Positions 9,790-26,478 of a DNA stretch of 32,000 nt are shown here, piece by piece. The number at the start of each line of letters is the position of its first letter. Position 1 is the stretch's first letter. The translations under genes were made by a program, and so were the position numbers. This stretch comes from Acaryochloris marina MBIC11017. GTDB taxonomy: Bacteria; Cyanobacteriota; Cyanobacteriia; Thermosynechococcales; Thermosynechococcaceae. The stretch is from the NCBI RefSeq assembly GCF_000018105.1, contig NC_009925.1, positions 4,140,001 to 4,172,000 on the forward strand, written 5' to 3'. The notes below the pieces were generated by a model, which worked only from the letters and a program-made list of their open reading frames with translations, had not been told where the DNA came from and made no database searches.

Positions 9790-9819
9790 TTGCATTACAT
9801 GGTAATTGATGGTTATAAT
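9790..9819 (+). promoter_or_regulatory. Sigma70-type promoter candidate for cassette 2 (identical to 6254-6283)
   Basis: TTGCAT at 9790-9795, 18-bp spacer, TATAAT at 9814-9819. Confidence 0.45.
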
Positions 9820-10213
9820 TAGGTCATTAAAAGTATTTTTACTCTAATAAATTTTAAGATAAAACTTGTTATCATATCATTATTATCTCTGAAAACAATA
9901 AAATATAAGCATCTTTTTTATTTACTTAAGGAATACTTAGAGAATCCTGAGAATCTTCTCAGAGTGGTTATTGTAATTACAGTGTTTAGTAGCTGTAGGC
10001 CCAATCATTCCTGACTAAACAATCTAGAAAGAAATAAAGGAGTCATGAGTTTTCTTTGTTTCTTTTGCTTGTTTATCCAATATTTGAAGCGTTGTGATGA
10101 ACTGCTTCTCAAATATTTGAATGAAACTAAGCAGGAATGATTGCCTATTTTGTCGGTGTGCAGCCCCGATTGCTTTGATCTCTAAAAATTTATTCACTTT
10201 AGTGAGGTTTAAT

Positions 10214-10663: not shown

Positions 10664-10701
10664 ATCAAGCTAGCTGCTTCATATCTAAGCCAAACAAACA
10701 A

Positions 10702-10726
10702 GGGGCAGCAGCTAAGCTGTTGCCCC
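10702..10726 (+). terminator. Intercistronic hairpin after gene A2
   Basis: Identical to 7166-7190. Confidence 0.55.
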
Positions 10727-10751
10727 TTTGCTCAGCTCAGGAGAATCAATC

Positions 10752-11492
10752 ATGCGTTATCGTCTTGGGCTGTTGAGTACATCGGTTGTGGGAATGTTGA
10801 CATTGTCATCAGGCTCAGTTTTAGCCCAAACGACAAATAGCATCACAGTACCTAACAACTCCCAATCAACAGCTAACCCTGAAGTCAATCTTGATCAGCA
10901 GGGCTCATTAGTAAATACTCAGGTCAACAGTACAACCTTAGGCCGCAGTGTTGTTGGCAACGGCATAGCAGACTGTACCAGTAATGGTTTAAGCGTGTCA
11001 GCCTATGGTAGTGGTGTCGGTCCCTTTGATACCGGTACGGTTGGAGGTGCGATTACCTATACCCATTCTTTTGGGATGGATACCTGTAAGCAGTACGCCA
11101 AGAATCAATTAGGGAAAGCGAAGCTTGAAACCTGTTTTCTGTTAATCAGTAACTATTCCAAAATGGTTAAAGCAGGTATTGATGTCAGCTATACAGCACT
11201 GATGGAAGTGGCTAATGTTGACTGTCCGCCTGTAACGGTTCGTCAAGCTGCGATTCCTCAGCCCTCTCCTTCTGCCTCGAATCGTCCGGTATCGCCTCCG
11301 GTTTCATTACAGGGGCAGCAACCTGCTCCAACGCCTACGGTGCGAGAGTATGGCAATAGTCCACAGAATCCACCTCAAGCGCAGACCCCATCTCCAGTAG
11401 AACCGCAACTCAAGACAGCATTACCTAACTCAACTTCGGAGTTGCCTGCTGTTCAAGGGCCTCAACGGTTGACGGCTAAAGAGTTGCTTTGA
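10752..11492 (+). CDS. Secreted protein B2 (246 aa)
   Basis: About 96.5% nt identity to B1 by manual alignment, with 5 aa replacements. Same RBS and signal peptide. Confidence 0.8.
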   Translation: MRYRLGLLSTSVVGMLTLSSGSVLAQTTNSITVPNNSQSTANPEVNLDQQGSLVNTQVNSTTLGRSVVGNGIADCTSNGLSVSAYGSGVGPFDTGTVGGAITYTHSFGMDTCKQYAKNQLGKAKLETCFLLISNYSKMVKAGIDVSYTALMEVANVDCPPVTVRQAAIPQPSPSASNRPVSPPVSLQGQQPAPTPTVREYGNSPQNPPQAQTPSPVEPQLKTALPNSTSELPAVQGPQRLTAKELL

Positions 11493-11752
11493 TGTCGATT
11501 CAGGGGATAACACTGTGTGTTGCCTACTTATTCTCGGAGGATGTCGCTCAGTAATCTTGCACTTGTATAGATCAGGCGAAAGTGATTTCGACCTAGATGC
11601 ATTCCTGTTGATGCTTGAATTATGTCCATAACTCCAACGTGATCTCTAGTTTGGGGTAAAGAGCTGCAAGCAGGATTGACTTCAGCTTAGTTGCAGTGCC
11701 AGGACTATTACGACGCTATGTGAGTTTATTAGGATTTTGGAGGGCACAAGTA

Positions 11753-12130
11753 ATGCAGATGAAGCCAATACTTTATGGTGCTGTGGCCTATGCCGTTTTC
11801 AGTACATCACCCTGCTATGCCCAGATAGTGCACGTGATGACGTTTCAGAACTCATCGGGTGGACGCCATATTAGAGAAATTACAGGTCAACAAACCCAGG
11901 ATGATCAGTCCATTGGTGTTTCTCTCAATACGTCGGATGAGCGTACAACAACCCGCTCTTCGTCCACAGTGAATGGTGTGACCCAAGAGCAAACCTATAC
12001 ATACATTAACTCAGCTAAGAGTCAGGCAGTTGAAACGGGGCATCGCAGAAGAATTGAACGTACTCGGCTTTTTGAAGCGTATGACTATTCGGACTACGCT
12101 GTTGACCACACTGTCGATTTTAGTTTTTAA
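11753..12130 (+). CDS. Small secreted protein C2 (125 aa)
   Basis: SD ggaggg sits 8 nt upstream of ATG 11753. After the first 6 codons there are 13 nt differences from C1, 12 of them synonymous. Confidence 0.8.
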   Translation: MQMKPILYGAVAYAVFSTSPCYAQIVHVMTFQNSSGGRHIREITGQQTQDDQSIGVSLNTSDERTTTRSSSTVNGVTQEQTYTYINSAKSQAVETGHRRRIERTRLFEAYDYSDYAVDHTVDFSF

Positions 12131-12312
12131 GTTTGCATAGTGTATGCCCCAACAAGGATTGAGCAGATTGTCTATACACCAACAGGTGGTTGATCTTGCA
12201 GCCACTTGTGAGAGTGCTCACTGTGTTGAGCAGTTATGGGAAATCACTGTTCTGACCTATCGATCTTGTCTTGAAAAGTACTCCAAGGCAGTTGTTGCTA
12301 GGAGATTTAACG

Positions 12313-12603
12313 ATGAAATCTACGATATTTTTAACGACAGTTATCACAGGGTTGAGTATTCTACCTGCCCAGGCTCAGACTCAGTCTTTCTTTGGGGTGC
12401 CCATTGGTCAAGATGTGCCAGTGATCGTCTTTTCCCCTGTAACTCAGTACTATCCGAACTATTATCCGGGACCTGGTTTTTACCAATATAGTCACTATTT
12501 TCGAAGCACAGAACACCATTTAGATTTTGATAGATATGACTACCTGCTTAGCGACGACTTGGTATACAACTTTCCGGTAGTCGGCAATTTTAATTACAAG
12601 TAA
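12313..12603 (+). CDS. Small secreted Tyr/Pro/Phe-rich protein D2 (96 aa)
   Basis: 7 nt differences from D1 and one replacement (K to R). Same RBS. Confidence 0.75.
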   Translation: MKSTIFLTTVITGLSILPAQAQTQSFFGVPIGQDVPVIVFSPVTQYYPNYYPGPGFYQYSHYFRSTEHHLDFDRYDYLLSDDLVYNFPVVGNFNYK

Positions 12604-12840
12604 TTCTGAAACGGTCATCAATGCATTCTGCTCATCAACAATTGGGCAATAGTGTATGTAGTGATTGAAGACGATGGAGTTAGCCTTTTTCAGCTTGATC
12701 CATTCAAGGGAAGTAGTATTGAGTGCTGCTCCTCGGCAGAGCAATGCAGTCAAGCAATCGTTAAACTGAAGAGATGAATGTCATCTTGTTTAAGGTGATT
12801 TCATTGTTTTTGATTGTGACGACGCAAGGATCATACGCAT

Positions 12841-13497
12841 ATGAAAGCATTTGTGGCTGGAGCAACGGGTCAAACGGGTCGCCGCATTGTGTCTCAATTA
12901 GTTGAGCGGGGTATTCCCGTGCGAGCTTTGGTTCGAGATATGGATAGAGCAAAAGCACTCTTACCGGAAGCTGCTGAGTTAGTGGTGGGCGATGTATTGG
13001 ATGCGAGTTCGTTGGAGGATGCGATCGCAGATTGTAACGTCCTCCTTTGCGCCACCGGAGCGGCTCCTGGCTTTAATCCGTTTGCACCCCTACAAATTGA
13101 TTATCTGGGGACCAAAAACTTAGTAGATGTGGCCAAAGCTAAAAACATTGAGCATTTTGTTTTGGTGTCTTCCCTGTGTACATCGAAGCTGCTGCATCCC
13201 CTGAATCTGTTCTTCTTGGTATTGGTTTGGAAGAAGCAGGCCGAACAATATATTCAAAATAGCGGGCTCACCTATACCATCGTCCGTCCCGGCGGCCTGA
13301 AGAACGAGGATAATGATAATTCCGTCGTCATGTCTGCCCCCGATACTTTATTTGAAGGCAGCATTCCCCGGACCAAAGTGGCTGAAGTTTGTATTGAAGC
13401 CCTGACGGCTGCATCCTCTCACAATAAGATTGTTGAAATCGTTGCCCCGTCTGAAGCGTTAGACCGACCAATCCCTGACTTATTTGCTAGTGTTTAA
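12841..13497 (+). CDS. NAD(P)H-binding atypical SDR / NmrA-like protein
   Basis: N-terminal Rossmann motif MKAFVAGATGQTGRRIV. VSSL and RPGGL segments are typical of NAD(P)-binding (NAD_binding_10-type) proteins. Confidence 0.8.
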   Translation: MKAFVAGATGQTGRRIVSQLVERGIPVRALVRDMDRAKALLPEAAELVVGDVLDASSLEDAIADCNVLLCATGAAPGFNPFAPLQIDYLGTKNLVDVAKAKNIEHFVLVSSLCTSKLLHPLNLFFLVLVWKKQAEQYIQNSGLTYTIVRPGGLKNEDNDNSVVMSAPDTLFEGSIPRTKVAEVCIEALTAASSHNKIVEIVAPSEALDRPIPDLFASV

Positions 13498-13606
13498 GTG
13501 AGTATATGAACTTAGTCGAGTTTCCAGCTGGGACTGACATAAGATCTCATTCATACTGGTTTAATCCTTTCAATCTAAGCCGTTTTATTGCTTAGGGAGT
13601 TAACCT

Positions 13607-14344
13607 TTGGCGTCTAGTTCATCCTCCAAACAGGCTAAACCGATCCATCGTATGGCTTGGCGTTTGGGTGTGTCGTTGACCTTGCTTCTAGGCTTGGGAG
13701 CGTTGTTTGTGCTGCCCAAGTTTGACCCCAAGAGTTTAACTTGGCCCACCACAGAGCCGGGTAGAATTGCCCCACTAGCCATGTCTGGGGGCAATCCCTA
13801 TCTTCGAGCTTTAATGCGGACGATTTCGGCCAGTGAATCGAATGATGCTAGCCCCTACACCGTGCTTTATGGCGGTAGCCATATCGAAAATTTGCAGGAG
13901 CACCCCGATCGCTGTATTCCCATTCGATGGGGACCCAATCAAGGGCTATGCACGACGGCGGCTGGGCGTTATCAGTTTATTACGACTACCTGGTTAGAAA
14001 CTGCAGAGAAGTATCATCCTGCTCCGACGGGAGAATGGATGTGGCGACGCTATAGTTTTGCCCCAGAATACCAGGATCGAGTGGTCTATGCTTGGTTAGA
14101 TGACGTCAATTATTGGGGAACAGATATTCCCCAACTCCTAGAAGATGGCCAGCTCCAAACGGTTCTTAAACGGCTTTCGGGAACGTGGACCAGTTTGGGC
14201 TATGGCATTGAGAGTAATAAGGTGACGCCCCACTTAATGCATATCTATGAACGCATGCTTGCGGAAGAAATTGCCTTAGCCAATGGGTTACCCACCAACT
14301 ATTTACCCACGGTGGCTAACCAATCCGTGGAAACGACGCGCTAG
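13607..14344 (+). CDS. GH104 (phage-lambda-lysozyme-like) lytic transglycosylase with N-terminal membrane anchor or signal
   Basis: SASESN (catalytic Glu region) and TTAAGRYQFITTTW resemble the lambda R AGRYQ signature. Hydrophobic WRLGVSLTLLLGLGALFVL near the N-terminus. TTG start at 13607, alternative ATG at 13652. Confidence 0.7.
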   Translation: MASSSSSKQAKPIHRMAWRLGVSLTLLLGLGALFVLPKFDPKSLTWPTTEPGRIAPLAMSGGNPYLRALMRTISASESNDASPYTVLYGGSHIENLQEHPDRCIPIRWGPNQGLCTTAAGRYQFITTTWLETAEKYHPAPTGEWMWRRYSFAPEYQDRVVYAWLDDVNYWGTDIPQLLEDGQLQTVLKRLSGTWTSLGYGIESNKVTPHLMHIYERMLAEEIALANGLPTNYLPTVANQSVETTR

Positions 14345-14346
14345 GA

Positions 14347-14595
14347 CTAAGCCTCTAACCGCTTCCATAAAGCCTGATAGAGACTATCGGGTACCTTGGC
14401 TCTGAGTACCTTCGCCAACCGATTTTTCTTCTGCGCTGCCTTGAGGCAATCGGCCTGGGGACAGAGATAGGCAGACCGTCCCATGCCTTGATCGAGCTGG
14501 ATTTGATGATCGGGATAGACCCGGACAATCCGCCAGAACTCAGATTTGGGGGCAACGTGGCGACAACTGATACATCGACGATGGTTGGGCTGCAT
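14347..14595 (-). CDS. ylxR: YlxR-family (DUF448) RNA-binding protein
   Basis: RRCISCRHVAPKSEFWRIV ... GRSAYLCP ... C..A.KKNRL is the typical YlxR Cys and basic pattern. 82 aa. Confidence 0.8.
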   Translation of the reverse strand: MQPNHRRCISCRHVAPKSEFWRIVRVYPDHQIQLDQGMGRSAYLCPQADCLKAAQKKNRLAKVLRAKVPDSLYQALWKRLEA

Positions 14596-14681
14596 GAACT
14601 AGAGAATCATCTTGAAAAGTAGCTATAGCTAGCTTACGCCTTAAACTATGGGGAGACCTAGGATCTGACATTGTTCTGCCC

Positions 14682-16844
14682 ATGTTGAATATTGTTCAAA
14701 TACTCTCTCAAGAGCTATCGATTTCCCCTCAGCGCCTGCAAAATGCCTTGGATTTGTTTGCAGAAGGGGCCACGATTCCCTTTGTGGCGCGGTATCGGAA
14801 AGAGCGAACCGGGCAAATGGATGAGACCCAGCTGCGGCAGCTCTCAGAACGGTTTACCTACCTGACGGAACTGGAAGAGCGCAAAAAGACGATCCTAGAA
14901 TCTATTGCTCAACAGAATAAGCTAACAGAGCTGCTCCAAGCCAAGATCGAAGCTTGTTTGCTGAAAACTGAACTCGAAGATCTTTACTTGCCCTATCGTC
15001 CTAAACGACGCACCCGAGCCACCATTGCCAAAGAAAAAGGATTAGAACCCTTGGCTCAATGGCTGCAAGCCCTCAATAAACCCACGGCAACCCTGAGCCA
15101 GGATCTGGCAACAGAAGCGGCTCGCTATATCAATAAAGATGTCGCCACTACCGAAGATGCATTGCAGGGGGCCTCGGATATTTTGGCGGAAGGAATTGCC
15201 GATCAGGCCGAGATTCGAACCCATCTCAAACATCGCTTCTTCCAAGTCGGCGAGTTTGTATCTCAGGTGAAATCTAAATATCCAGAAGGGAGCACCAAGT
15301 TTGAGATGTACCGAAGTTACCAAGCCCGAGCCAAGAATATTCTGGCCCATAATTTACTAGCCCTTTATCGAGGAGAGGCGGAAGGTATTCTCAAAGTCGA
15401 GTTGGCGATTGATGAAGAGCGAATCTTGGGAGATATCGAAGAGCGGGTGATTCGTTCCAAAATTCGAGCCGTGCGAGATTTTTTCCGAGGGGTGGTGAAG
15501 GATGCCTATACTCGCCTGATTAAACCATCTGTGGTCAAGGAGGTGCGGGCTGCCTGCAAAGCGGAGGCGGATAGCGAGTCGATCCAAACCTTTGCCACAA
15601 ATTTACGGGAACTGCTGCTCTCTAGTCCTGCGGGGATGAAGCCTACATTGGGGATTGATCCAGGGTTTCGTACGGGCTGCAAAGTGGTTGCCCTAGATCA
15701 TACGGGAAAGTTTTTGGAATACCAGGCGATTTTTCCCCACCAGGCAGTGGGACAGCGGGACCAAGCTGCCAAAACTGTTGCCCGACTTATTCAAACGTAT
15801 CAAATCGACCTGATTGCCATTGGCAATGGAACAGCGGGCCGGGAAACCGATGCCTTCGTAGCGGATGTCTTAAAAACCCTAGACCGTAAGCCCATCAAGG
15901 TGATGGTCAATGAATCCGGTGCCTCGATTTATTCGGCCAGTGAGATTGCCATTGCCGAGTTTCCTGATTTAGATATCACGGTGCGCGGGGCGATCAGTAT
16001 TGCCCGCCGCCTCCAAGATCCCCTGGCAGAACTCGTCAAACTCGATCCCAAGTCCATCGGCGTGGGCCAGTATCAGCATGATGTGGATCAAAAGCTGCTG
16101 AAGCAAAAGCTAGAAGAGACGGTGGAAAGCTGTGTGAACTATGTGGGGGTTGATTTGAATACGGCTTCCAAGGAACTACTGACTTTTGTGTCGGGGATTA
16201 CGGGGGCGATTGCCAACAATATCATTGCCTATCGCAACCAAAATGGGGCATTCAAAAACCGCAAGCAGCTTCTCAAAGTCGCCAAGCTCGGCCCCAAAGC
16301 CTTTGAGCAGGCCGCTGGCTTTTTGAGAATCCGGACGGGGGATAATCCCCTGGACAATACCGCTGTCCATCCCGAAAGTTATGGTGTGGTCAAGACCATT
16401 AGTGCCGATCTAGAACTTCCCCTTAGCCAGATCGCGAAGATTCCCGCGCATCTGAGACCGGGAGATCTAAAAACCTATGTGACTGAGACGATTGGTGAGC
16501 CTACTCTCAAAGACATCATGGCGGAGTTGGAAAAACCAGGCCGCGATCCTCGGGCTGAGTTCAAATACGCCACGTTTAAAGAAGGTATTACGGAGCTGAC
16601 GGATCTCAAGCCTGAAATGGAGTTGGAGGGGATTGTCACGAATGTCACCAATTTTGGGGCTTTTGTGGATGTTGGCGTCCATCAAGATGGTCTGGTTCAT
16701 ATTTCCCAAATGGCGGATCAATTTGTGAAAGATCCTAAGCAGATTGTGAAAGTGGGGCAAGTGGTCAAGGTGCGGGTACTAGAGGTGAACCAAAAACTCA
16801 AACGTATTGGTTTATCGATGCGTTCGACCTCTAGCACAAGATAG
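14682..16844 (+). CDS. tex: Tex-like RNA-binding transcriptional accessory protein (YqgF/HhH/S1 domains)
   Basis: N-terminal ATIPFVARYRKE. GIDPGFRTGCK is the YqgF-like motif. GNGTAGRE, the HhH region, and a C-terminal S1 domain GIVTNVTNFGAFVDVGVHQDGLVHISQ. Confidence 0.95.
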   Translation: MLNIVQILSQELSISPQRLQNALDLFAEGATIPFVARYRKERTGQMDETQLRQLSERFTYLTELEERKKTILESIAQQNKLTELLQAKIEACLLKTELEDLYLPYRPKRRTRATIAKEKGLEPLAQWLQALNKPTATLSQDLATEAARYINKDVATTEDALQGASDILAEGIADQAEIRTHLKHRFFQVGEFVSQVKSKYPEGSTKFEMYRSYQARAKNILAHNLLALYRGEAEGILKVELAIDEERILGDIEERVIRSKIRAVRDFFRGVVKDAYTRLIKPSVVKEVRAACKAEADSESIQTFATNLRELLLSSPAGMKPTLGIDPGFRTGCKVVALDHTGKFLEYQAIFPHQAVGQRDQAAKTVARLIQTYQIDLIAIGNGTAGRETDAFVADVLKTLDRKPIKVMVNESGASIYSASEIAIAEFPDLDITVRGAISIARRLQDPLAELVKLDPKSIGVGQYQHDVDQKLLKQKLEETVESCVNYVGVDLNTASKELLTFVSGITGAIANNIIAYRNQNGAFKNRKQLLKVAKLGPKAFEQAAGFLRIRTGDNPLDNTAVHPESYGVVKTISADLELPLSQIAKIPAHLRPGDLKTYVTETIGEPTLKDIMAELEKPGRDPRAEFKYATFKEGITELTDLKPEMELEGIVTNVTNFGAFVDVGVHQDGLVHISQMADQFVKDPKQIVKVGQVVKVRVLEVNQKLKRIGLSMRSTSSTR

Positions 16845-16937
16845 CGTTCGCTGCCTTTGTTGTTAGTCAGAGCCAATTGTTCAGGCTGGTCAAGATGTGT
16901 AAAAGGGAGGGGAGTCCAAGCATGGCTATCCTTGGAC

Positions 16938-17177
16938 TTATGCATCGTCATCGTCGTGTTTATCTGACTTTTTCTGGCGGTGATTTAGCCAAGTAATCAG
17001 AGCTTTGCCCCCTAGTGAGGATGCAACCAGAGTGATGTCAAAAATACGGTCTTGTTGCTCTGAAAGGGTGGGTTTATTGGCTAACTGAACGGCTTTACTA
17101 CCTGTGCTAAGAGTAAAGAATAACAAGGTAGTGATGATGAGTTGAGAGATAGCAGTCGATTTGTATGTTTGCATCAT
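16938..17177 (-). CDS. Hypothetical small membrane protein (79 aa)
   Basis: SD ggag lies 4 nt upstream of ATGATG at 17177. One hydrophobic helix AISQLIITTLLFFTL and an acidic DDDDA C-terminus. No family recognised. Confidence 0.35.
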   Translation of the reverse strand: MMQTYKSTAISQLIITTLLFFTLSTGSKAVQLANKPTLSEQQDRIFDITLVASSLGGKALITWLNHRQKKSDKHDDDDA

Positions 17178-17403
17178 GAACTCCGCGATTTTTTCATATA
17201 AGCCCATAGTGCTGAAAAAACCTCTAAAGATCAGTCCCTGTAAAGGTTATGAGAGGGCTGACTTTAGGATGAGTTTGGTATGACTTTGGATGAATTAAAT
17301 GACGGTCAGGCGTATTATCCTCACAAGCGAACACCATATTGTTCGTGAAATGACTGTGCTGATACTGATAAGTAGAATATTGGCAAGTGATGAGAAATAA
17401 AGC

Positions 17404-19776
17404 ATGGCCACGAGATCGCTAGCAGCAACCCCAAAAGGCATCGAAATAATTGAAAGAGCCTTGATGGATAAGCAATGGGGGTGTGATGATCTCAAGAAGC
17501 AGTGTGATTGTAGCCGCCAGCCTGCTGTTAAGTTCTGTGCAGGCAAAAACGTCGATAGAAAGCTTTTTGTTGGTTTTTGCAAAGTATTAGAGCTGGACTG
17601 GGAAGAAATTTCAGGTATTAAGACTGCTTCAGAAGTAGCTGAAACGACTCAGGTTGCAACTGATATAAATACGCTTGTCCAAAAGATTCGTCAGAAAGTA
17701 AAAGCTGATATTCACCATCGCTGTGGCACGATGCGGGTGCTGGATATGGAGCAGCCGATTGGACTGGGTGAAATTTATACTCGCGTCAATATTCTTGAGA
17801 AACTATCTGGAAGGCAGCGTTTAAGGGTTGATGAGCTATGGCAAGATTGCAATATTGATAACTTTGATCGGTGGCTGCTAGGACAGGTGCGTGTCAAACG
17901 AGTACCGGGATTAGAAGCGGTTGAACGTTATAACAAGCTGCTGATTTTAGGTAAGCCTGGAGCGGGTAAAACCACTTTTATGAAGCGGTTAGCAACCCAA
18001 TGCAATCAGGGAAAGTTTGAAGCTTACCGAATTCCTGTGTTTGTCACCCTGAAAGAATTTGCTGAAGCGCCAGGTAAACCCGATTTGCAAAGCTATATTT
18101 TCCAGCAATGGGGAACTTGTGAAATTGAGGAAAATGCTCTTGGCCAGGTTCTAAAAACTGGTCATGTTCTGATTTTATTGGATGGTCTAGATGAAGTTCA
18201 GGCTACGGATCATGATCGGGTTTTGAATTCAATTAAGACATTTACTGAACAGTTTCGCGACTGCCAGTTTGTGATGACTTGTCGGATTGCCGCTCGCGAA
18301 TATACATTTGAGCAGTTTACGGAAGTGGAAGTTGCTGATTTTAACGAAGAGCAAATAGAAGACTTTGCTACCAAGTGGTTTAGAACTAAGCAAGATCCTG
18401 AAAAGGGTGAAAATTTCATCAAACGCTTGCAGGAAAATAAGCCAATTCAAGAGCTAGCAACTAATCCTTTATTGCTGACATTGCTGTGTTTGGTATTCGG
18501 TGAGGCCAATGATTTTCCCCATAATCGTTCAGAGCTTTATAAGGAAGGGCTAGATGTTCTGCTGAAAAAATGGGATGGCAAACGCAATATTGAACGCGAT
18601 CAGGTTTACAAAAAACTGTCCTTGCAGCGTAAAGAAGATCTGTTGAGTCAATTGGCTTATCAAACCTTTGAGCAAGGAGACTACTTTTTTAAACAACGAG
18701 TCATTGAAACTAAAATCATTGACTATATCCGTAATTTGCCAGGTGCTAATGAAGATGAAGAAGCGCTTCAACTGGATAGCGAAGCTGTGCTCAAGTCAAT
18801 TGAAGCCCAGCATGGCCTGCTAGTGGAAAGGGCTAGGGGGATTTATTCCTTCTCACACTTAACTTTTCAAGAATATTTCACGGCTAAACAAATTACTTGT
18901 CCTACTTCTCAACTTCCTAAAGCCCTAGAAAATCTCGCAAAACATTGTTTGGAAAAACGTTATCGAGAGGTCTTTTTTCTTGTTGTAGGAATGTTGCCTG
19001 AAGCCGATGATTTTTTCAGACTGCTCAAAATCCAGATTGATCGATTAATCGCTGATGAACCTAATTTACAAGAGTTTTTGGTTTGGGGTTCTGGAAAAGC
19101 TCAATCAGTTAATGCTGACTATAAATCAGAAGCAATCCGGGCTTACTACCTCTACCTCGCCCTCGCCCGCGCCCGCGCCCGCGCCCGCGACCTCAACCTT
19201 GACCGCGCCCTCGCCCGCGCCCGCGCCCTCAACCTCGCCCTCGCCCGCGCCCGCGCCCTCGCCCGCGACCTCGACCTCGCCCTCGACCTCGCCCTCAATC
19301 TTGACCGCGCCCTCGCCCGCGCCCTCGACCTCGCCCGCGACCTCAACCTCGCCCGCGACCTCAACCTCTACCTCGCCCTCGACCTCACCCTCGACCTCTA
19401 CCTCGCCCTCGACCACGCCCTCGACCAACTAACCAAAATTGAGTCAAAAGGAAAAGATGATCCCGAAATTCTTATTAAATTAAGAGCATTACAATCTCAA
19501 CTCCCTGATTTACAGGACATTCAAGCTTTCAGCAGTTGGTGGAAAGATATGGGAGAATCTTGGATCAAAAATTTGCGCCAAGTCATGATTGACCATCGCA
19601 ATATTGGTCATTATTGGCAATTCACCCCAGCCCAAACGGAAAAACTGCAGCAGTATTTTGAGACCAATCAATTATTGGTTGATTGCCTCAATAGCGATTG
19701 CTACGTCACCAAGGCCACTCGCGAGGAGATCCTGTCAACTTTGCTATTACCGATAAGTGAACTGGAGAAGCAGTAG
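17404..19776 (+). CDS. NACHT-family STAND NTPase with N-terminal HTH-like module, C-terminal dipeptide-repeat array and conserved tail
   Basis: Walker A LILGKPGAGKTTFMKRL, Walker B VLILLDGLDEV, and NACHT-typical FVMTCRI, NPLLLTLLC and HLTFQEYF. The N-terminal approx 65 aa (SLAATPKGIEIIERAL..CSRQPAVKFCAG..VDRKLFVGFCKVLELDWEEI) resembles the module found at the N-terminus of many cyanobacterial NACHT/WD40 proteins. Confidence 0.9.
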   Translation: MATRSLAATPKGIEIIERALMDKQWGCDDLKKQCDCSRQPAVKFCAGKNVDRKLFVGFCKVLELDWEEISGIKTASEVAETTQVATDINTLVQKIRQKVKADIHHRCGTMRVLDMEQPIGLGEIYTRVNILEKLSGRQRLRVDELWQDCNIDNFDRWLLGQVRVKRVPGLEAVERYNKLLILGKPGAGKTTFMKRLATQCNQGKFEAYRIPVFVTLKEFAEAPGKPDLQSYIFQQWGTCEIEENALGQVLKTGHVLILLDGLDEVQATDHDRVLNSIKTFTEQFRDCQFVMTCRIAAREYTFEQFTEVEVADFNEEQIEDFATKWFRTKQDPEKGENFIKRLQENKPIQELATNPLLLTLLCLVFGEANDFPHNRSELYKEGLDVLLKKWDGKRNIERDQVYKKLSLQRKEDLLSQLAYQTFEQGDYFFKQRVIETKIIDYIRNLPGANEDEEALQLDSEAVLKSIEAQHGLLVERARGIYSFSHLTFQEYFTAKQITCPTSQLPKALENLAKHCLEKRYREVFFLVVGMLPEADDFFRLLKIQIDRLIADEPNLQEFLVWGSGKAQSVNADYKSEAIRAYYLYLALARARARARDLNLDRALARARALNLALARARALARDLDLALDLALNLDRALARALDLARDLNLARDLNLYLALDLTLDLYLALDHALDQLTKIESKGKDDPEILIKLRALQSQLPDLQDIQAFSSWWKDMGESWIKNLRQVMIDHRNIGHYWQFTPAQTEKLQQYFETNQLLVDCLNSDCYVTKATREEILSTLLLPISELEKQ
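19147..19425 (+). repeat. In-frame hexanucleotide microsatellite-like array (about 46 units, consensus RMC-CKC) inside the NACHT gene
   Basis: Units are GCCCGC, GCCCTC, GACCTC, AACCTC, GACCGC and TACCTC. They encode YLYLALARARARARDLNLDRALARARALNL...LALDHALD. The stretch is visibly GC-rich (about 70-75%) and has no stops in several frames on both strands. Confidence 0.95.
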
Positions 19777-19814
19777 TCCCTCCCAAAAGGATAGAAAAAA
19801 TAATCTAGAAACGC

Positions 19815-20507
19815 TTATGTATCCTGGGTTGCTGCTTCTTCGCTTACCGAAGTCTGAACTTGCAACTGCTGCCTCAACCAATTGGCTGCTGCCGTATTCG
19901 TCTCCACCGTCAAACGCTCCAGCGTTTCTTCCACAAGACCAGTCGGTAGCCCCGTCAATACCTGTGAAGATTCGAGGATCTCATATACACCCACTTCAGA
20001 TAGCCCAAACGCAAAAAGCTGTCTACCTTTAACATCAATGACCCAATATTCAGCAATTCCCAAACTCGCATAAAGCTGCTTTTGCTCATCTAGATCAATA
20101 TTTAGCGTCGTATCTGCAATTTCTCCTACCAAATCCGGCAAACGGTGGCGATTCAGCTCAATGCGCCGAGGTTCACCCGGTTGCCACCGAGGAAAATTCT
20201 CTCCCTTATACAGCACTAAATCAGGCGCACAAGCATGGGTATCCGGTAGCTCCAATAAGCAACGACCATAGGACTGCAAGGCGGCTTCAGGATGTAAAAA
20301 CGCCCAAACAAAAAAGACCGCCGTAATTAAATCGCTAAATGAAGCATGATTTGGCCCTTCTGTCCCTATATCAACCCATAACCATCCTGCATAAAACGCA
20401 ATCTTGCGCCAGTCGTCTTTCCCATCTCGGATAGCCACATAGTCTTGCCAAGTTGCATCCCGACGCTGGAGGATTAGCGATTCAGTTTTGTCCAGAGAAA
20501 GAGTCAT
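19815..20507 (-). CDS. Uma2-family (DUF820) putative restriction-endonuclease-fold protein
   Basis: PDLVLY, GEPRRIELNRHRLPDLVGEI and LYASLGIAEYWVIDV fit the Uma2 PD-(D/E)xK-like core. The likely start is MTLSLDK at 20507; the ORF opens at 20546. Confidence 0.8.
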   Translation of the reverse strand: MTLSLDKTESLILQRRDATWQDYVAIRDGKDDWRKIAFYAGWLWVDIGTEGPNHASFSDLITAVFFVWAFLHPEAALQSYGRCLLELPDTHACAPDLVLYKGENFPRWQPGEPRRIELNRHRLPDLVGEIADTTLNIDLDEQKQLYASLGIAEYWVIDVKGRQLFAFGLSEVGVYEILESSQVLTGLPTGLVEETLERLTVETNTAAANWLRQQLQVQTSVSEEAATQDT

Positions 20508-20653
20508 GGGTAGACACCTATCGCACCCTTTCATCATAATCTCCATTGATTTAGCTGCTTGGCAAGGGAGATAGAGTAAAGGCTTATGTATTAACGCTGA
20601 CCGGAATACCTAGCAAATTCAAAACTGATTCCAGGTAAATACTACGTCATGTT

Positions 20654-23041
20654 CTAATGCAACAAACAGTGCGCATACTGAGTAGCTCGCTGCATCAACA
20701 ACTGATGAGTAGATCGTTCCGGTTCATCTGGTCCAGGACGCCGTTGGACAAACGTTCCATCTGGCTGCAACTCCCAAGCTTGGCGATTATCCGAAAGCAT
20801 AATTTCCAACAACTCTCGCAGCTCCGCCACTAAAGCCGGATCCTCAATGGGAACCACCGCCTCCACCCGACGGTCCAGATTACGTTGACGCCAGTCCGCA
20901 CTGCCAATCAGCACTGTAGGCTGCCCCTGGTTATGGAAATAGAAAATGCGGTCATGCTCCAGAAAGCGACCGATAATGCTGATCACATTGATGGTCTCGC
21001 TGACTCCCTTAATACCGGGTTTCAGACTACAAATTCCTCGCACAATCAGATCAATCTTCACCCCCGCCTGGGAAGCACGATACAAGGCTCGGATAATTTT
21101 GGGATCGACCAGGGAGTTCATCTTGGCGATGATGCGGCCTGAGTTACTCTGCCGCTGGTGATCAATTTCGCGATTGATCAATTCCAAGATGCGATCGCGC
21201 AAATTAACCGGAGCCACCAACAGCTTCCGATAGCTTTGATGGCGGGAGAACCCCGTCAAATAGTTAAACAGATCCGTCAGATCCGCTCCTAATTCATCGC
21301 GACAGCTCAGCAACCCTAAATCCGTGTAGAGGCGAGCAGTTTTTGGATTGTAGTTGCCCGTGCCAATATGGACATAGCGACGAATTTGCTTACTTTCTCG
21401 ACGCACCACCAGGGCAATCTTGGTGTGGGTTTTGAGCCCCACTAGTCCATAGACCACATGGACGCCGACTTTCTCTAACTTTCTAGCCCAGACAATATTA
21501 TTCTCTTCATCAAATCGAGCTTTTAGCTCCACCAGGGCCACCACTTGCTTGCCATTCTCCGCCGCAGCAATCAGGCTGCTGACAATGGGAGAACTGGCCA
21601 GTCCCCCGTCCGCTGCCGTCCGGTAGAGGGTCATCTTGATCGTCAAAACATTGGGGTCATGGGCGGCTTGGGTGATAAATTTTTGCACCGTCGCCGTAAA
21701 CGAGTCATAGGGATGATGGACGAGAAGATCGCCACCCCGAATCACCGAAAAGATATCCGTGGGCGATTCCTTGATAGCTTTGTCTGGATGCCCATTGGCG
21801 GCGACCACAGGCATCTCCAACTGTTCCACCTTTCGTAATCGCGAGGGCACTATGGGAGTCCAGGGCGCCTGCTGCAAATGGGGGAAGGGGAGAAAGGCCA
21901 GCCCCATCAGATCACTTAGGCTGAGTAGCCCCTCGATATGATAGACATCGCTTTCATCCAGCTCCAGTTCGCGCATCAGGGTCTGACAGATAAAGTCTGG
22001 CGTTCCGGTTTGAATCTCCATGCGCACCACCGATCCAAAGCGGCGTTTGCGTAGTTCTTCCTCAATGGCCAGGAGTAAATCATCCGCTTCATCTTCTTCC
22101 AGCTCTAGGTCGGCATTCCGGGTAATCCGAAATGGGTAACAGGCCTGAATGGTCATGCCCGGAAATAGAAACTCTAGGTTTTGGGCAATCACCTGCTCAA
22201 TGGGGACGCCACTCCAGCGGCAGATCGAACAATCGCAACTGTTCTCCGGTAGTTCAATAAACCGGGGCAGCATACTCGGCACTTTAACGCGAGCGAAATG
22301 TCCATCGCCTGTTTGAGTGTCTTTGACCAGCACCGCTAAACTCAGACTGAGATTGGATATATAGGGAAACGGATGGCCAGGGTCCACGGCCAATGGCGTT
22401 AAGACAGGAAAGATCTGATCTAGAAAGTACTGATGGAGAAAGGCAACTTGCTGTGGATTGAGATTGTCGTAGTCGAGCAGGCAAATATTCTCTTTCGCCA
22501 GCTCAGGTTTGAGGAATTCCGTGAAGTATTGATGTTGTTGCTGAATTTCAGGTTTTAATTCCCGGTGAATGGCGCCGAGTTGAGCTTGGGCCGTTAATCC
22601 GTCTAGGGAACGCTGGGTGACCTGAGCAGCAATTTGCTGCTTTAAGCCCGAGACGCGCACCATAAAATACTCATCTAAGTTTGAGCTATAAATAGCCATA
22701 AACTTGAGCCGCTCTAACAGCAACGTGCGCTCATCAAAAGCTTCATGTAAAACTCGTTGATTGAACTTCAGCCAGCTAATTTCACGATTGAGATAATAGG
22801 CTGGGTCTCGCAGATTAATCTCTTGCGGGGGGGCTGTTGGGGCCTTTGGTGGTGGGGCAGGTGCAGAATCTACCCTCTTGGCCTGAAGCGCTGCCATAAT
22901 GCGATCCGCCTCTGCCTGACTCACCGAGCTGCTGGGCGTGGTGGCCTCGATATGTAAGCTATGACTGAGGGCAAGCACTTCTTTGGAGCTTAGCTGCAGC
23001 TCCCGTGCCAAGGTATAAATTCGAATGCTATCTGAACCCAT
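20654..23041 (-). CDS. ppk: Polyphosphate kinase 1 with IF2_N-like N-terminal extension
   Basis: PPK1 signatures YLNREISWLKFNQRVL, LDEYFMVRV, GLVGLKTHTKIALVVR and IGTGNYN, with two PLD-like C-terminal domains. An extra approx 75 aa precedes the PPK N domain. Confidence 0.95.
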   Translation of the reverse strand: MGSDSIRIYTLARELQLSSKEVLALSHSLHIEATTPSSSVSQAEADRIMAALQAKRVDSAPAPPPKAPTAPPQEINLRDPAYYLNREISWLKFNQRVLHEAFDERTLLLERLKFMAIYSSNLDEYFMVRVSGLKQQIAAQVTQRSLDGLTAQAQLGAIHRELKPEIQQQHQYFTEFLKPELAKENICLLDYDNLNPQQVAFLHQYFLDQIFPVLTPLAVDPGHPFPYISNLSLSLAVLVKDTQTGDGHFARVKVPSMLPRFIELPENSCDCSICRWSGVPIEQVIAQNLEFLFPGMTIQACYPFRITRNADLELEEDEADDLLLAIEEELRKRRFGSVVRMEIQTGTPDFICQTLMRELELDESDVYHIEGLLSLSDLMGLAFLPFPHLQQAPWTPIVPSRLRKVEQLEMPVVAANGHPDKAIKESPTDIFSVIRGGDLLVHHPYDSFTATVQKFITQAAHDPNVLTIKMTLYRTAADGGLASSPIVSSLIAAAENGKQVVALVELKARFDEENNIVWARKLEKVGVHVVYGLVGLKTHTKIALVVRRESKQIRRYVHIGTGNYNPKTARLYTDLGLLSCRDELGADLTDLFNYLTGFSRHQSYRKLLVAPVNLRDRILELINREIDHQRQSNSGRIIAKMNSLVDPKIIRALYRASQAGVKIDLIVRGICSLKPGIKGVSETINVISIIGRFLEHDRIFYFHNQGQPTVLIGSADWRQRNLDRRVEAVVPIEDPALVAELRELLEIMLSDNRQAWELQPDGTFVQRRPGPDEPERSTHQLLMQRATQYAHCLLH

Positions 23042-23561
23042 GGGTTTGTATTTATCTGGAGTGATCTAAGGCAGGGAACGGGGGTTTGGAGAAGAAGCGC
23101 TTAGAGCTTAATTTTGCTGGGCGTAGGTAAACGATACGTTAAGCATGAACACTCCGTTGCAGCTATCGTTACATAGGTTTATCGCTTACCCGATATCGAT
23201 AGGAGGTTAGACCTCGGACCCAAGATGATTGATCTGGGCGGACTGAAGGCTGAACTTTCGATGATGGATCAGTCATTTTCAATCCTAATAGATGTTAGAG
23301 GTTGTGGTCGGTATTTAGGGAGCTGTTGCTGGTGGAGCAAGCCTTTTTGCCCCATCACAGATCCAATTTTTTTGAATATTTTCTGACAAAGGTAAAGATT
23401 ATTAGTGCGGGTCTTAATATGCCGATGTTATATTTAAATCTCTGCTGGGGGTATTCACTGATGACAGTGCTTTTATTTGAACGTACTGTTCATACTTTTT
23501 TCGCTACGAACGACTCAACAGCAGGTGCAACATCGTGGTCCTTACCCAACCGAATTTAGCC

Positions 23562-24227
23562 ATGTCCTCTCACAACTCTGATGACTCACTTTCAGATAGT
23601 GAACTCATTCAAACCTTTGTAGAAGGGTTTGTTCAAGGTCGGCCTGTTTTATTATCTAACGCCAATCTGCGTACTGAGCCGTTGTTTGACAGCATGCAGC
23701 TAATTGACAATAAAGAAGGCCTGATTTCGACGGCGAACCTCAAGCAAGCTCCTATCTCGGCAAAGATTCGTCCCGTATCGGCCTATTGGGGTGTCCTCCA
23801 TGACGCCATGATGGATCAGAGCTTTTATCCCCTCGCCAAAAGCGATATGAGCGATTGCTATATTTATCGCTATTGTGCACCTTCCAACGACTATGAAATG
23901 CAATGCACGACGGCCCGAGAGCTGTGGCGGGTGTGCTGGGGGCGGGGCTATAGCGTCCGGTCCGGTATTCCTTTGGACTTGATGATCTGGGGGCATGGTC
24001 CCACCAGCCATCGAGAAAAATGGCATGCCCTGCGCAATATGGAATGTGAAAATGGCCAATTAGCTATCAAGATTCTTGGAGGCACCATCCGGGTGGATGG
24101 GGAAGATTTAGTGGTCTGGGCGCGTAAAAATGCCAATACCCGGCTATCTTCCGTTAATCGACAAGACCGTGATGGCCAGAGTCCTTTGCGGGCAGGCATG
24201 CGGGGCTATCTTCGGTTGAACAACTGA
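23562..24227 (+). CDS. Hypothetical protein (221 aa), no recognised motif
   Basis: Long ORF with normal coding composition. The first ATG is at 23562; the ORF opens at GTG 23535. The antisense ORFs are shorter. Confidence 0.55.
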   Translation: MSSHNSDDSLSDSELIQTFVEGFVQGRPVLLSNANLRTEPLFDSMQLIDNKEGLISTANLKQAPISAKIRPVSAYWGVLHDAMMDQSFYPLAKSDMSDCYIYRYCAPSNDYEMQCTTARELWRVCWGRGYSVRSGIPLDLMIWGHGPTSHREKWHALRNMECENGQLAIKILGGTIRVDGEDLVVWARKNANTRLSSVNRQDRDGQSPLRAGMRGYLRLNN

Positions 24228-24309
24228 TCCATCGAGCCATCATGGCTCAAAGGTAACAGAACAGACAGGGGCATCTTCAACGCCAGCTTGCAGCTTGTAC
24301 AGAGCAGAC

Positions 24310-26478
24310 CTACTGGGCCTGCTCTTGCATTAGCTGTTGGATTTGGGGGTTGTAGAGCCTGAGATAATTCCAATAGTTCTCAGAGACGGATTTGACATAG
24401 TTTTTCGTCTCTGGGAAGGGGATCTCTTCGACAAAGACATCGACATCCGTCACCGAAGTCTGTTTAACCCACCGATCTACATTACCAGGGCCAGCATTAT
24501 AGCTTGCGATCGCAAGCATGGAATTGTCGTTATAGTTGCGGTGGGTATAGTCCAGGTACCAGGTGCCGAGATTGATATTGTCGTCAATGCCGTCGATTTG
24601 ATAGTCTTTGAGACCTGCTTTTTCACTCACCCATTCAGCGGTTTCTGGCAGCACCTGCATCAGCCCTACGGCTCCCGCGACGGAGCGAATTTTGGGCTGA
24701 AACCGTGATTCCTGACGCATCAGGCTTAACACCAGAAACGGATTCAGATTGCGCTGGTTGGACCATTTGCGAATGGGGGTGAAGTAGGCCAAGGGAAATA
24801 GGGCCTGTTCAAACCCCGGATGGTCTTGCCACTGTTCGACTAGCTTTTCGGGATCGTTTTCCTCCCGTGCCCGCATTTCCAGATTGGCCAGCATATAAAT
24901 GCCGTCTAGGTATTCCTGAACCCCGAGGCGCAATAAGCCATCCGTGAGCTGTTCCGATAAGCTAGGCTGCTGGCGATTGCGAAACTCCCATTGCCAGCGT
25001 GCCCAGGCCGTTTTGCTTTGTCCGAGCTGGTATAGCTCTTTCAGAGCTGGGGATCCGGCGGCCAAAGGCAGTTGCGTACTGGGAAACCGAATTTGGGGTT
25101 GGAAGGAACGGATGGACGTAAAATCGCCAACGTTCCAGCCCGATAGTACAGCCGCTCGCCAGGCATAGTAGGAATCAGGATAGGTTTGCCAGAGGGTTTG
25201 AAAGGCTGCTTGCCGCTCTTCTGCCGTGGAGGCCCATTTCCCGGCCCAGAACACGGCAGTTGCGGCCTGGGGGCTATTGGGGTTTTGCTTTTGGATTTCC
25301 AGGGCCAACTTGCGGGCACCAGCCAGATTCCCTGCCTTTCGCTGCTGCTCTGCCTGCTGCCATCGCAGAGTCGCTGCATCGTTTGAATCGGAAAACTGTT
25401 GCAGCAACGTTTTCTCAAAGGTGGAAGATAGCTGTTTGGCCTTCTTTAACCGCTGAATTCGCTCCCCGAGGATTTGGGCAGCTAAGGTGGGCTGCTGGTC
25501 TTTACTTAGTTGAAAGGCGCGGTCATAGTGCTGGGCTGCTTTGCCCAAGTCTGGTTCTAGACTGGCGAGCTTGCTCAAGGCCAGGGGCGTTTCTTTGGCC
25601 TGAGGATAGGCCGCGATCATTTTTTGATAGGCAGCCCTCGCTTGTTTCTTTTCTCCCCCGAGCTGCAAGCCCCGTGCACCTCGATAAGCCGTTTGGGACG
25701 TCTGGGGGGCTTGGGCATAGGCCAGTGCCCCCTCCTTATACAGTTGTTTTTCCCAGTATCCAAAGGCGATAATTTGCCAATCAGCAGGTTTGAGCTGGCC
25801 TTTGAATTCCTTCGTCAGCTGGGTTAAGTAATCTCCATAATTGGTTAAAAATAAACCATGCTCTGCAATGAGCATCAGTAGCGGTAACTGCTTGGGCTTT
25901 TTCTTTAACTGCTCTACAGCAATCTTCACCGTCTTAGGATGGGCGGGGAAATCGGCGATAGCTTGCTGCCAGAGTTCAGGCTTTTGCTGGCCGAGTACAA
26001 ATAAAGCTTCTGCTGCAGCGGGTTCTTGGGGATAGTCGGCAATAATGCGCTGCCAGGTCTTGGTGGCTTGCTCTGTCTGCCCCGCTAGGGTTTGGGCCTC
26101 AGCCTGGAGAACGGCGATATGGCTCCCTAATAGAGGGTAACGCGCTTCCAGCCCCTCTAACCACTGCAGGGCTTCTGCCCCTTGGCCCAGGTTAATGAGG
26201 TCCGCAGTTAACACATACCGGGCCTGATTCTGTTCTTGGGCAGTGCCCTGCTGGGCCAGCTGTTTAAGAGGCTCTATCCGCTGTTGGGCAGGGAGAGGCC
26301 GTAATGCCACTAGGGCAGAATTGACGGTTGAAACCTGTAGCGATGGTAAGGGCTGATCCGTGGATTCCAGCTTCGGTTTCAGAAATAGCCAGGCTAACCC
26401 TAATACGAGGGCACTGCTGAGTCCCATGGAGATGATCCAGGGGGCTAAGCGCTTCAAAAAATTGGGAGAACTGCCCAT
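24310..26478 (-). CDS. Soluble lytic murein transglycosylase (Slt70-like: signal anchor, helical repeat U-domain, C-terminal SLT domain)
   Basis: SLT catalytic motif LMRQESRFQPKIRSVAGAVGLMQVLPETA and AIASYNAGPGNV. Long Ala/Gln/Leu-rich helical (TPR-like) N-terminal region and an N-terminal hydrophobic segment. Confidence 0.9.
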   Translation of the reverse strand: MGSSPNFLKRLAPWIISMGLSSALVLGLAWLFLKPKLESTDQPLPSLQVSTVNSALVALRPLPAQQRIEPLKQLAQQGTAQEQNQARYVLTADLINLGQGAEALQWLEGLEARYPLLGSHIAVLQAEAQTLAGQTEQATKTWQRIIADYPQEPAAAEALFVLGQQKPELWQQAIADFPAHPKTVKIAVEQLKKKPKQLPLLMLIAEHGLFLTNYGDYLTQLTKEFKGQLKPADWQIIAFGYWEKQLYKEGALAYAQAPQTSQTAYRGARGLQLGGEKKQARAAYQKMIAAYPQAKETPLALSKLASLEPDLGKAAQHYDRAFQLSKDQQPTLAAQILGERIQRLKKAKQLSSTFEKTLLQQFSDSNDAATLRWQQAEQQRKAGNLAGARKLALEIQKQNPNSPQAATAVFWAGKWASTAEERQAAFQTLWQTYPDSYYAWRAAVLSGWNVGDFTSIRSFQPQIRFPSTQLPLAAGSPALKELYQLGQSKTAWARWQWEFRNRQQPSLSEQLTDGLLRLGVQEYLDGIYMLANLEMRAREENDPEKLVEQWQDHPGFEQALFPLAYFTPIRKWSNQRNLNPFLVLSLMRQESRFQPKIRSVAGAVGLMQVLPETAEWVSEKAGLKDYQIDGIDDNINLGTWYLDYTHRNYNDNSMLAIASYNAGPGNVDRWVKQTSVTDVDVFVEEIPFPETKNYVKSVSENYWNYLRLYNPQIQQLMQEQAQ
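24502..24517. repeat. HIP1 (GCGATCGC) highly iterated palindrome, extended copy gcttGCGATCGCaagc
   Basis: Other exact GCGATCGC copies are at 5792-5799, 13021-13028, 21191-21198 and 27334-27341. This is a cyanobacterial genome hallmark. Confidence 0.85.

Follow-up and report, generated by a model that had tools for sequence, protein, structure and literature searches.

Classical transcription activators of the signal transduction ATPases with numerous domains (STAND) class, such as MalT, AfsR/SARP, and GutR, undergo signal- and ATP-dependent oligomerisation, which drives their cooperative binding to asymmetric direct-repeat sites, e.g., the MalT boxes and the 11-bp-phased SARP heptamers. [quoted passage not shown] The process activated by this STAND transcription activator is synechan (polysaccharide) biosynthesis (PMC8205485). 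Here we analyse an HTH–NACHT gene of Acaryochloris marina MBIC11017 and its surroundings in a stretch of 32,000 nt (contig NC_009925.1, positions 4,140,001 to 4,172,000 of the forward strand; hereafter the window, by which all coordinates are numbered; Table 1). From its homology to XssQ, and by analogy with the manner in which the latter acts, this gene probably, if with ample room for doubt, encodes an XssQ-family STAND transcription factor resembling the nucleotide-binding leucine-rich-repeat (NLR) proteins and controlling a small divergent neighbour, which we name S1.

A second body of work concerns the NACHT proteins of bacteria, among which those combining NACHT with the NACHT C-terminal helical domain 2 (NCH2) have been grouped in clade 6 (supplementary Table S1, Kibby et al., bioRxiv 10.1101/2022.07.19.500537). 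The same source lists an HTH+NACHT+NCH2 protein of Nostoc sp. PCC 7120 (RUR88354.1, with NCH2 ending at residue 789), and places in clade 6 the TIR-, caspase-, HEPN-, Schlafen-, and EAD-NACHT-NCH2 proteins, with restriction endonuclease (REase) domains also found in the N-terminal slot, as well as two antiphage proteins from E. coli, bNACHT25 and bNACHT32 (REase+NACHT+NCH1); an HTH in the N-terminal slot is classed there as one of the non-enzymatic "adaptor" effectors and may activate transcription. The window protein is hence not of a new kind, its architecture having been catalogued and a homologue characterised. On shared architecture alone, i.e., a NACHT module followed by a C-terminal helical domain, it would belong to this NCH2-bearing clade. 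The bNACHT25 and bNACHT32 proteins differ from it in carrying an N-terminal PD-(D/E)xK nuclease and NCH1, and in needing DnaJ for phage sensing. By the same sequence-based reasoning, XssQ would itself be an HTH+NACHT+NCH2 protein of the NCH-bearing clade that holds bNACHT25 and bNACHT32, an identification that appears to be new in the literature searched.

XssQ (WP_011153595.1), recovered from plasmid pSYSM of Synechocystis 6803 by tblastn of plasmids, aligns with the window protein from end to end (783 vs. 790 aa, 36% identity, E 2e-141; BLASTP), and shares its arrangement of an XRE-type HTH followed by NACHT, a short stretch rich in L/D, and NCH2, the Pfam domains of the two proteins being ordered alike. 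Likewise, xssQ is divergent from the gene it controls, the ~160-nt intergenic region holds its box (a perfect copy, GTCTAACTT, sits 40 nt upstream of the xssQ start codon), and its boxes, single or tandem, partly resemble the repeats found in the window. The two genes differ in their setting: xssQ lies between xss glycosyltransferase genes and two response-regulator genes of a polysaccharide cluster, with XssR and XssS adjacent, and controls many glycosyltransferase/sulfotransferase genes, whereas the window gene is without two-component neighbours or sugar genes and is paired with a small protein. They also differ between NACHT and NCH2, with ~40 residues in XssQ at the place of the long array that a microsatellite encodes in the window gene. 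XssQ also functions in S. elongatus 7942. MalT, AfsR, and GutR are more distant, as they belong to STAND clades other than NACHT, have no homology to the window protein outside the P-loop core, and bear DNA-binding domains elsewhere or of another type (C-terminal and LuxR-type in MalT, N-terminal and SARP/OmpR-type in AfsR). The initial annotation of this locus had proposed a defence or sensing module and had named a purely regulatory, transcription-factor assignment among the outcomes that would speak against it; our homology searches returned just such an outcome, the full-length homologue XssQ being a proven transcription activator.

The NACHT signature is made up of the Walker A motif GxxxxGK[ST] and the NACHT-specific Walker B motif D[GAS]hDE (Kibby et al., bioRxiv 10.1101/2022.07.19.500537). 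In the translated window gene, these are found as GKPGAGKTT (residues 183-191) and LLDGLDEV (residues 258-265, with DGLDE at 260-264), and the Walker A and Walker B residues are invariant in 106 homologues, on which both motif invariance and the conservation profile were based. Pfam detects NACHT (PF05729) at residues 179-328 with 72.4 bits against a cut-off of 26.7 (E 5e-20), as well as nSTAND3 above its cut-off besides NCH2, with weak matches to NB-ARC and AAA_16; membership in the clades of MalT, AfsR, and GutR finds no support here. In an AlphaFold2 (AF2) model built from the 106-sequence alignment (mean predicted local distance difference test score [pLDDT] 80), the nucleotide-binding, helical 1, winged-helix, and helical 2 domains (NBD-HD1-WHD-HD2) form a well-predicted module and NCH2 is helical (pLDDT 84-96); the best PDB matches of the model by Foldseek are the animal NLRs NLRC4, NOD2, and NLRP3 (E ~1e-9; 1.6e-9). 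Given this signature, the passing of a curated profile threshold, and the predicted fold, the window protein is a NACHT-clade STAND protein. It shares with the animal NLRs the D[GAS]hDE Walker B and an FSHLTFQEYF winged-helix motif, and differs from them in having neither an LRR sensor nor a CARD/PYD adaptor, at an identity of 13-18%. Its cyanobacterial family is a very large one, with >7,500 clusters (E<=1e-5) that share 50-75% identity with the query and a NACHT core 50-70% identical across orders; along the protein, conservation is very uneven, with 60-90% identity in the NACHT core and arms, a conserved NCH2, and a highly variable array between.

The N-terminal module is, on family profiles and predicted structure, a true HTH, and would be the output domain of the protein. 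Among family N-termini aligned to the query (n=24), HTH_26 was matched in 17 and HTH_3 in 13 (best E 2e-8), a profile of these N-termini matches PDB entries of XRE-type regulators (3tyr, HipB, and 434 repressor), and AF2 predicts five helices with a pLDDT >95 over residues 10-70. Separate Pfam searches of residues 321-588 and of the array found nothing. No enzymatic effector domain was detected in the protein with Pfam, NCBIfam, or PADLOC: the PADLOC family PDC-S60 covers only the NACHT region (residues 175-501; E 3e-16) with no full-length match to a defence protein, and the NCBIfam EruA match (52 bits vs. a cut-off of 1000) is a partial one to the P-loop/NACHT region. The initial annotation had thus rightly recognised an NLR-like STAND protein with an HTH-like N-terminus, a canonical NACHT core, a dipeptide-repeat array, and no enzymatic effector; of its conserved tail, the presence and the conservation hold, yet the tail is not an unassigned one, corresponding as it does to NCH2. 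As a separate observation, the HTH subgroup of the window is Cys-rich (residues 27, 34, 36, 45, and 59; WGCDDLKKQCDCSRQPAVKFCAGK...FVGFC), with C59 invariant across the 24 aligned N-termini and the CxC...C pattern kept in the closest relatives; from this pattern, a metal- or redox-sensitive DNA-binding head is conceivable.

The intergenic region shared by the NACHT gene and S1 contains a candidate operator. When lag self-matches were compared with 500 dinucleotide shuffles, the window repeats matched at 17 of 22 positions at lag 11 (p=0.002), with degenerate units continuing to ~17310 and a further AAATGACTGT at 17348-17357. In related loci, the shared intergenic regions carry direct repeats as 3-5 units in tandem, with periods ranging over 9-12 nt and mostly being 11. 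Comparable arrays at p<=0.01 were present in 12/24 S1-linked intergenic regions, and at p<=0.05 arrays were found in 39% of 80 upstream vs. 8% of downstream regions (Fisher p=4e-6). Unit 3 of the window (GTATGACTT) matches the XssQ box GTNNAACTT at 6/7 specified bases, while the repeats of relatives range from perfect XssQ boxes (locus L015) to clearly different cores (TTGTCAGA). Across the window, the degenerate XssQ-like pattern GTNNRASTT is not enriched (15 matches vs. 13 expected); only its local tandem cluster is meaningful. In a promoter/terminator scan, matches were no commoner than in shuffled sequence.

A comparison of loci shows that the repeats change in both period and core along with the recognition helix of the HTH. 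Five loci with the recognition helix CSRQPA(V/I)(K/N)FC have 11-nt units with an (A/C)TGA(G/C)T core (ATGAGTT, ATGACTT, CTGACTT, CTGAGTT, and CTGAGTA). Four with GCSRQTIW(S/N)LLQGN have 9-nt units with a TGTCA/TGACA core (TTGTCAGA in three, TGTCAAAGT in L085), and LuxR-like heads go with CCTGACTT repeat units. At L015 (one locus), there are three tandem GTC(G/C)AACTT/GTCAATTTT units; two agree perfectly with the XssQ box, and the remaining one does so at 6/7 specified bases. Such co-varying arrays appear to be new in the literature searched. A side observation concerns the 11-nt units of the CSRQP-type loci (GAGGATGAGTTG; L001, L004, L003, L071, and window positions 17267-17277), which contain GGATGAG and so resemble the E. 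coli MalT box core GGGGA(T/G)GAGG; this likeness is probably a coincidence, the DNA-binding domains being unrelated.

S1 itself has a reading frame that stays open to 17207, beyond the ATG assigned as its start (ORF 16938..17207 (-), 89 aa), and its product is made up of two moderately hydrophobic helices, as a hairpin, followed by an acidic tail; AF2 predicts a helical hairpin (pLDDT 72). In a census of 81 loci, phmmer detected S1 homologues in 17, all (17/17) on the divergent strand and <=500 nt upstream of the NACHT start, with none elsewhere in 1.4 Mb. The S1 family numbers 464 clusters in a large protein database, all of them cyanobacterial hypothetical proteins of 74-89 aa, and Pfam gave no matches on the small ORFs. 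Further small ORFs (S2a, S2b, S3, and S4) occupy the same divergent position in 30 other loci, for an S1-S4 total of 47 among the 76 loci with enough upstream sequence, and the mini-families S5-S8 do so in 10 more, such that a small ORF of any kind is found there in 57/76. A coding signature is apparent in all small-ORF families, with codon-position differences in the order 3>1>2, and S1 has a ratio of nonsynonymous to synonymous divergence (dN/dS) of 0.20 against its counterpart in the syntenic contig L080. These families were delineated by homology clustering because the helices are only moderately hydrophobic for a Kyte-Doolittle scan; such a scan for small ORFs with two transmembrane (TM) helices (threshold 1.5) was dropped, having found conserved ORFs in only 4/75 loci. 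On these comparative data, the small ORF (~75 aa) and the direct repeats are conserved partners of the NACHT gene; the small divergent ORF families appear to be new in the literature searched.

Reciprocal look-ups starting from S1 found 6/6 genes to be divergent from an HTH-STAND gene, at 137-165 nt, of which four are NACHT-type (three full-length NACHT+NCH2 and one split HTH_3+NACHT with no NCH2 recorded) and two are nSTAND1 with a LuxR-like head. These data bear on an alternative in which S1, as a co-sensor or anchor, would bind the NCH2/array arm and keep the NACHT protein in an inactive state (e.g., at the membrane), with the HTH regulating genes elsewhere. It has indeed been proposed that small C-terminal domains after a repeat module may link NACHT proteins, as a tether, to an endogenous component (Kibby et al., bioRxiv 10.1101/2022.07.19.500537), and S1 diverges together with the NACHT allele, being 30% identical between the window and syntenic contig L081 when the flanking proteins are 88-96% identical. 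However, S1 is also found paired with an nSTAND1 protein in which NCH2 is missing and the LuxR-like HTH is the same, which links S1 to the HTH and promoter, not to NCH2; moreover, the shared intergenic region holds operator-like repeats, and the divergent neighbour of XssQ is a regulated target. We accordingly regard a co-sensing S1 as improbable, and favour S1 as the regulated gene of an XssQ-like factor.

Two observations extend beyond the NACHT genes. At L084 (107-3840) and L088 (1-3840), an nSTAND1/AAA_16 STAND (in two ORFs) combines a LuxR-like head, a divergent S1, and CCTGACTT repeats; with these three found on an nSTAND1 core, it seems that head, operator, and small gene pass together from one STAND core to another. 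In L005, L012, and L016, two family members lie in tandem or within 10 kb, consistent with large cyanobacterial paralogue numbers and with a need for insulated HTH/operator specificities.

For an XssQ-like factor at this locus, we envisage the following sequence of events. The resting state would be an ADP-bound monomer. A signal would be read by the C-terminal arm formed by the array and NCH2, possibly via a partner protein in the way that XssR acts on XssQ, and would trigger nucleotide exchange and oligomerisation of the NACHT module. The oligomer would set several HTH heads in one orientation, thus allowing cooperative binding to the helically phased repeats at 17256-17310. Occupancy of the repeats would switch on the divergent S1, with the NACHT gene probably being autoregulated, and the S1 product would then serve as the local output, perhaps at the membrane.

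Several points weigh against this proposal and temper our confidence in it. (i) Both oligomerisation and whether regulation is by activation or by repression are taken by analogy from XssQ, MalT, and AfsR. (ii) The match of the window units to the XssQ box is only partial (4-6/7), units other than unit 3 agreeing at 4-5/7 bases. (iii) Among the scanned neighbours in the window, there is no gene of the XssR (receiver-only response regulator) or XssS (histidine kinase) type, so the input would differ from that of XssQ; in a Pfam census of 144 immediate neighbours in family loci, receiver domains account for 8. (iv) Taken alone, the N-terminus of the query (residues 1-178) has no Pfam match, with the HTH being assignable only via family members. 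(v) Approximately one-quarter of related loci are without a small divergent ORF, and the S1-S4 families, for which hhalign probabilities were <=40%, are treated as distinct. (vi) A Foldseek search with the S1 model returned nothing with E <1.9, and the maximum hydropathy of S1 (1.43) is below the classical TM cut-off. The initial annotation had placed a small membrane-protein ORF divergently upstream; the ORF is present and is a conserved partner, but hydropathy does not bear out its membrane character, for which "plausible" is the appropriate term.

The sensor side of the protein is marked by its array, in which Tandem Repeats Finder detects a period of 6 nt and 44.8 copies (19155-19423). The 94 aa thus encoded are [A/D/N/T/Y]-[L/R] pairs, specified by CTC/CGC codons alternating with GCC/GAC/AAC/TAC/ACC, and third codon positions are C in 90/95 vs. 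15% in the remainder of the gene; from these third positions and the codon composition of the units, the array is a hexanucleotide microsatellite in which nearly all variation is non-synonymous. AF2 predicts it as low-confidence helices (pLDDT 39-74). Across the 106 homologues, the corresponding region is 35 to 150 aa long with 18-30% identity. Among 77 family members, the frequency of the commonest third-position base has a median of 0.56 for the array region vs. 0.23 elsewhere, lag-6 self-identity has a median of 0.39 vs. 0.26, and individual arrays range from pure repeats to decayed, non-repetitive sequence. This range suggests slippage-driven cycles of array expansion and decay. The microsatellite nature of the variable arm appears to be new in the literature searched, and a candidate means by which sensor properties could change rapidly is this length-variable, microsatellite-encoded arm that separates NACHT from NCH2. 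Separately, the NACHT gene of L081 (~6650-7434) undergoes a frameshift precisely where the array begins, leaving NCH2 intact in a different frame; this could reflect on/off switching by the microsatellite, pseudogenisation, or an assembly error in the repeat.

The Tex–small ORF–NACHT–Ppk locus of the window was compared with two syntenic contigs, L080 and L081, the flanks of which have 97% and 87% nucleotide identity to the window, respectively. Against L080, flanking genes have a synonymous divergence (dS) of 0.02-0.26 and 98-100% protein identity, compared to a dS of 0.85 and identities of 75% (protein) and 79% (nucleotide) for the NACHT gene. Over 12841-26478, dS thus peaks at the NACHT locus (SLT, 0.02; NmrA-like, 0.045; Tex, 0.12; Ppk, 0.26; small ORF, 0.31; NACHT, 0.85), as would be expected near a polymorphism that has been maintained for long or recombines. 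Since dN/dS is low in the NACHT core (0.06-0.13), if higher in the linker (0.63) and the array (0.55), the high dS reflects the arrival of an allele that diverged anciently and is under purifying selection, rather than runaway protein evolution. The block of high identity ends at 17283, within the upstream repeat array, and three DNA-binding heads occupy this one locus: the window has a Cys-rich XRE, L080 an XRE with an insertion, and L081 a LuxR-like head. Together, the hexanucleotide array and deep allelic divergence point to diversifying/frequency-dependent selection on what is sensed, which is compatible with a role in conflict but no proof of one.

A rival reading is that of an antiphage NLR acting by abortive infection; here, phage would activate the NACHT protein and the HTH would induce S1 as a membrane-disrupting effector that stops growth or kills, i.e., the transcription-factor mechanism is kept and a defence physiology added. 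In its favour are the validated bNACHT25 and bNACHT32 of clade 6, the TIR, caspase, HEPN, Schlafen, and REase domains that fill the N-terminal slot elsewhere (with a TIR-like N-terminus in L050 of our own set), a NACHT gene so diverged inside nearly identical flanks, the three heads at one chromosomal locus in three close relatives, the hypervariability of the sensor-side array, and a ~9-fold local enrichment of Uma2 genes (PADLOC PDC-S03 and PDC-S17). Conversely, the sole characterised full-length homologue regulates polysaccharide synthesis, the context in the window is a housekeeping one (Tex, Ppk, TrmD, and RNase HII) with no defence island seen, the PADLOC/NCBIfam matches are partial ones to the NACHT region and far below cut-offs, strong purifying selection acts on a NACHT core that is well conserved across orders, and S1 is not clearly a membrane protein. 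A defence role of the window gene is possible; in the specific form of an abortive-infection system, we consider it doubtful.

The initial annotation also pointed to a convergent Uma2 gene close by, which is indeed present, and raised a functional link between it and the NACHT gene. In the resulting proposal, the two genes would form a defence module with the PD-(D/E)xK-like Uma2 nuclease as the missing effector. Besides the convergence across a 38-nt gap, this has on its side a census with an iterated Uma2 profile, in which 11 genes were found in 79 related loci drawn from species-representative genomes, 8 of them within 2 kb of NACHT (282 kb) vs. 3 in the remaining 919 kb (binomial p=8e-4), and the adjacency of Uma2 to S1 in L084 and L088. 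Yet, L080 and L081 have the same gene order as the window (NmrA-like, 245-aa protein, Tex, small ORF, NACHT, Ppk, and SLT) and both are without Uma2, with no counterpart to window segment 19779-20653. Only 4/144 immediate neighbours are Uma2 genes, the other families in that Pfam census being, apart from receiver domains, an unrelated scatter. Uma2 lies within 2 kb in 8/79 loci, on either side and in any orientation, leaving ~90% of loci without it, and convergence here excludes co-transcription. Synteny thus largely refutes the module, which we hold to be very improbable indeed; on synteny and the neighbour census, Uma2 was rejected as a partner, and the suggested link did not survive. Comparison of the loci leads us to judge the Uma2 gene an incidental, lineage-specific insertion outside the system. 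Its local enrichment is real but weak, and co-location in variable spots fits better than a functional pair. All-against-all clustering of the larger neighbours likewise yielded no conserved large partner, with the commonest families being signalling proteins, SbcC, and other HTH-STAND paralogues.

Table 1. Features of the HTH–NACHT locus in the window
Feature	Position	Strand	Evidence
Small partner gene S1, 78 aa from ATG at 17174	16938..17174	-	Homologues at same position; coding signature
Three tandem 11-nt direct repeats GGCTGACTTTA GGATGAGTTTG GTATGACTTTG, candidate operator array for HTH	17256..17288	+	Lag-11 match p=0.002
Promoter-like site ATGACT-17-TAGAAT, 25 nt upstream of NACHT start codon	17350..17378	+	Consensus scan, 9/12 matches
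HTH-NACHT-array-NCH2 gene	17404..19776	+	790-aa ORF; Pfam, homologues, AF2
Cro/C1 (XRE)-type HTH, residues 1-70, recognition-helix region QCDCSRQPAVKFCAGK, Cys-rich variant	17404..17613	+	Family HTH matches, PDB profile matches, AF2
NACHT module (NBD-HD1-WHD-HD2), residues ~101-570	17704..19113	+	Pfam, invariant motifs, Foldseek, dN/dS
Walker A GKPGAGKT, residues 183-190	17950-17973	+	Translation
Walker B LLDGLDE	18175-18195	+	Translation
Hypervariable dipeptide array, residues 583-676, hexanucleotide microsatellite (CKC GMC)n	19150..19431	+	Tandem Repeats Finder, codon composition
NCH2 (NACHT C-terminal helical domain 2), residues 692-783	19477..19752	+	Pfam PF22727, E 4.7e-35
Uma2-family gene	19815..20546	-	Pfam PF05685, E 2e-24; 38 nt from NACHT stop codon

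Further observations concern the surroundings of the NACHT gene. Uma2 genes are ~9-fold denser near the modules than in the 2-10 kb flanks, in ~10% of loci (e.g., L084 4421-4975 and L088 4376-4930), and the window copy matches two candidate families of PADLOC, PDC-S03 and PDC-S17. This copy lies between the two halves of a 14-nt direct repeat (19809 and 20578), and a target-site duplication was considered; no clean empty site emerged when the junctions were aligned with L080 and L081, and we make no claim of mobility. The Ppk gene (20654-23041 (-)) has an extra N-terminal region of ~50 aa matching IF2_N (PF04760, E 7.6e-6), a match that is weak in the syntenic relatives. Elsewhere in the window, 5996-9009 and 9532-12614 form a tandem duplication of ~3.5 kb with 89-92% nucleotide identity, each copy holding four genes with signal-peptide-like N-termini and no Pfam match (180, 254, ~126-144, and ~113 aa) and starting with a low G+C of ~0.36.

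A wider extrapolation, speculative and in our view unlikely to hold in full, is that the >7,500 clusters represent a large cyanobacterial class of "transcriptional NLRs", each privately wired to a small hairpin protein via a co-evolving HTH/direct-repeat operator, with the arm diversifying by hexanucleotide-microsatellite slippage and the loci persisting as ancient exchangeable alleles. Such a class would serve immune or self/non-self recognition with gene induction as its output, and XssQ would be a domesticated offshoot.

Ultimately, the identification of XssQ as a NACHT protein joins two literatures between which no cross-link was found in the literature searched, and our analysis gives the "effector-less" cyanobacterial NACHTs a testable wiring that consists of a DNA-binding head, private phased repeats, and a divergent small gene as the likely output. 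If true, this would show in what way bacteria can read out an NLR-type switch by transcription, and would provide dozens of natural orthogonal HTH/operator pairs.

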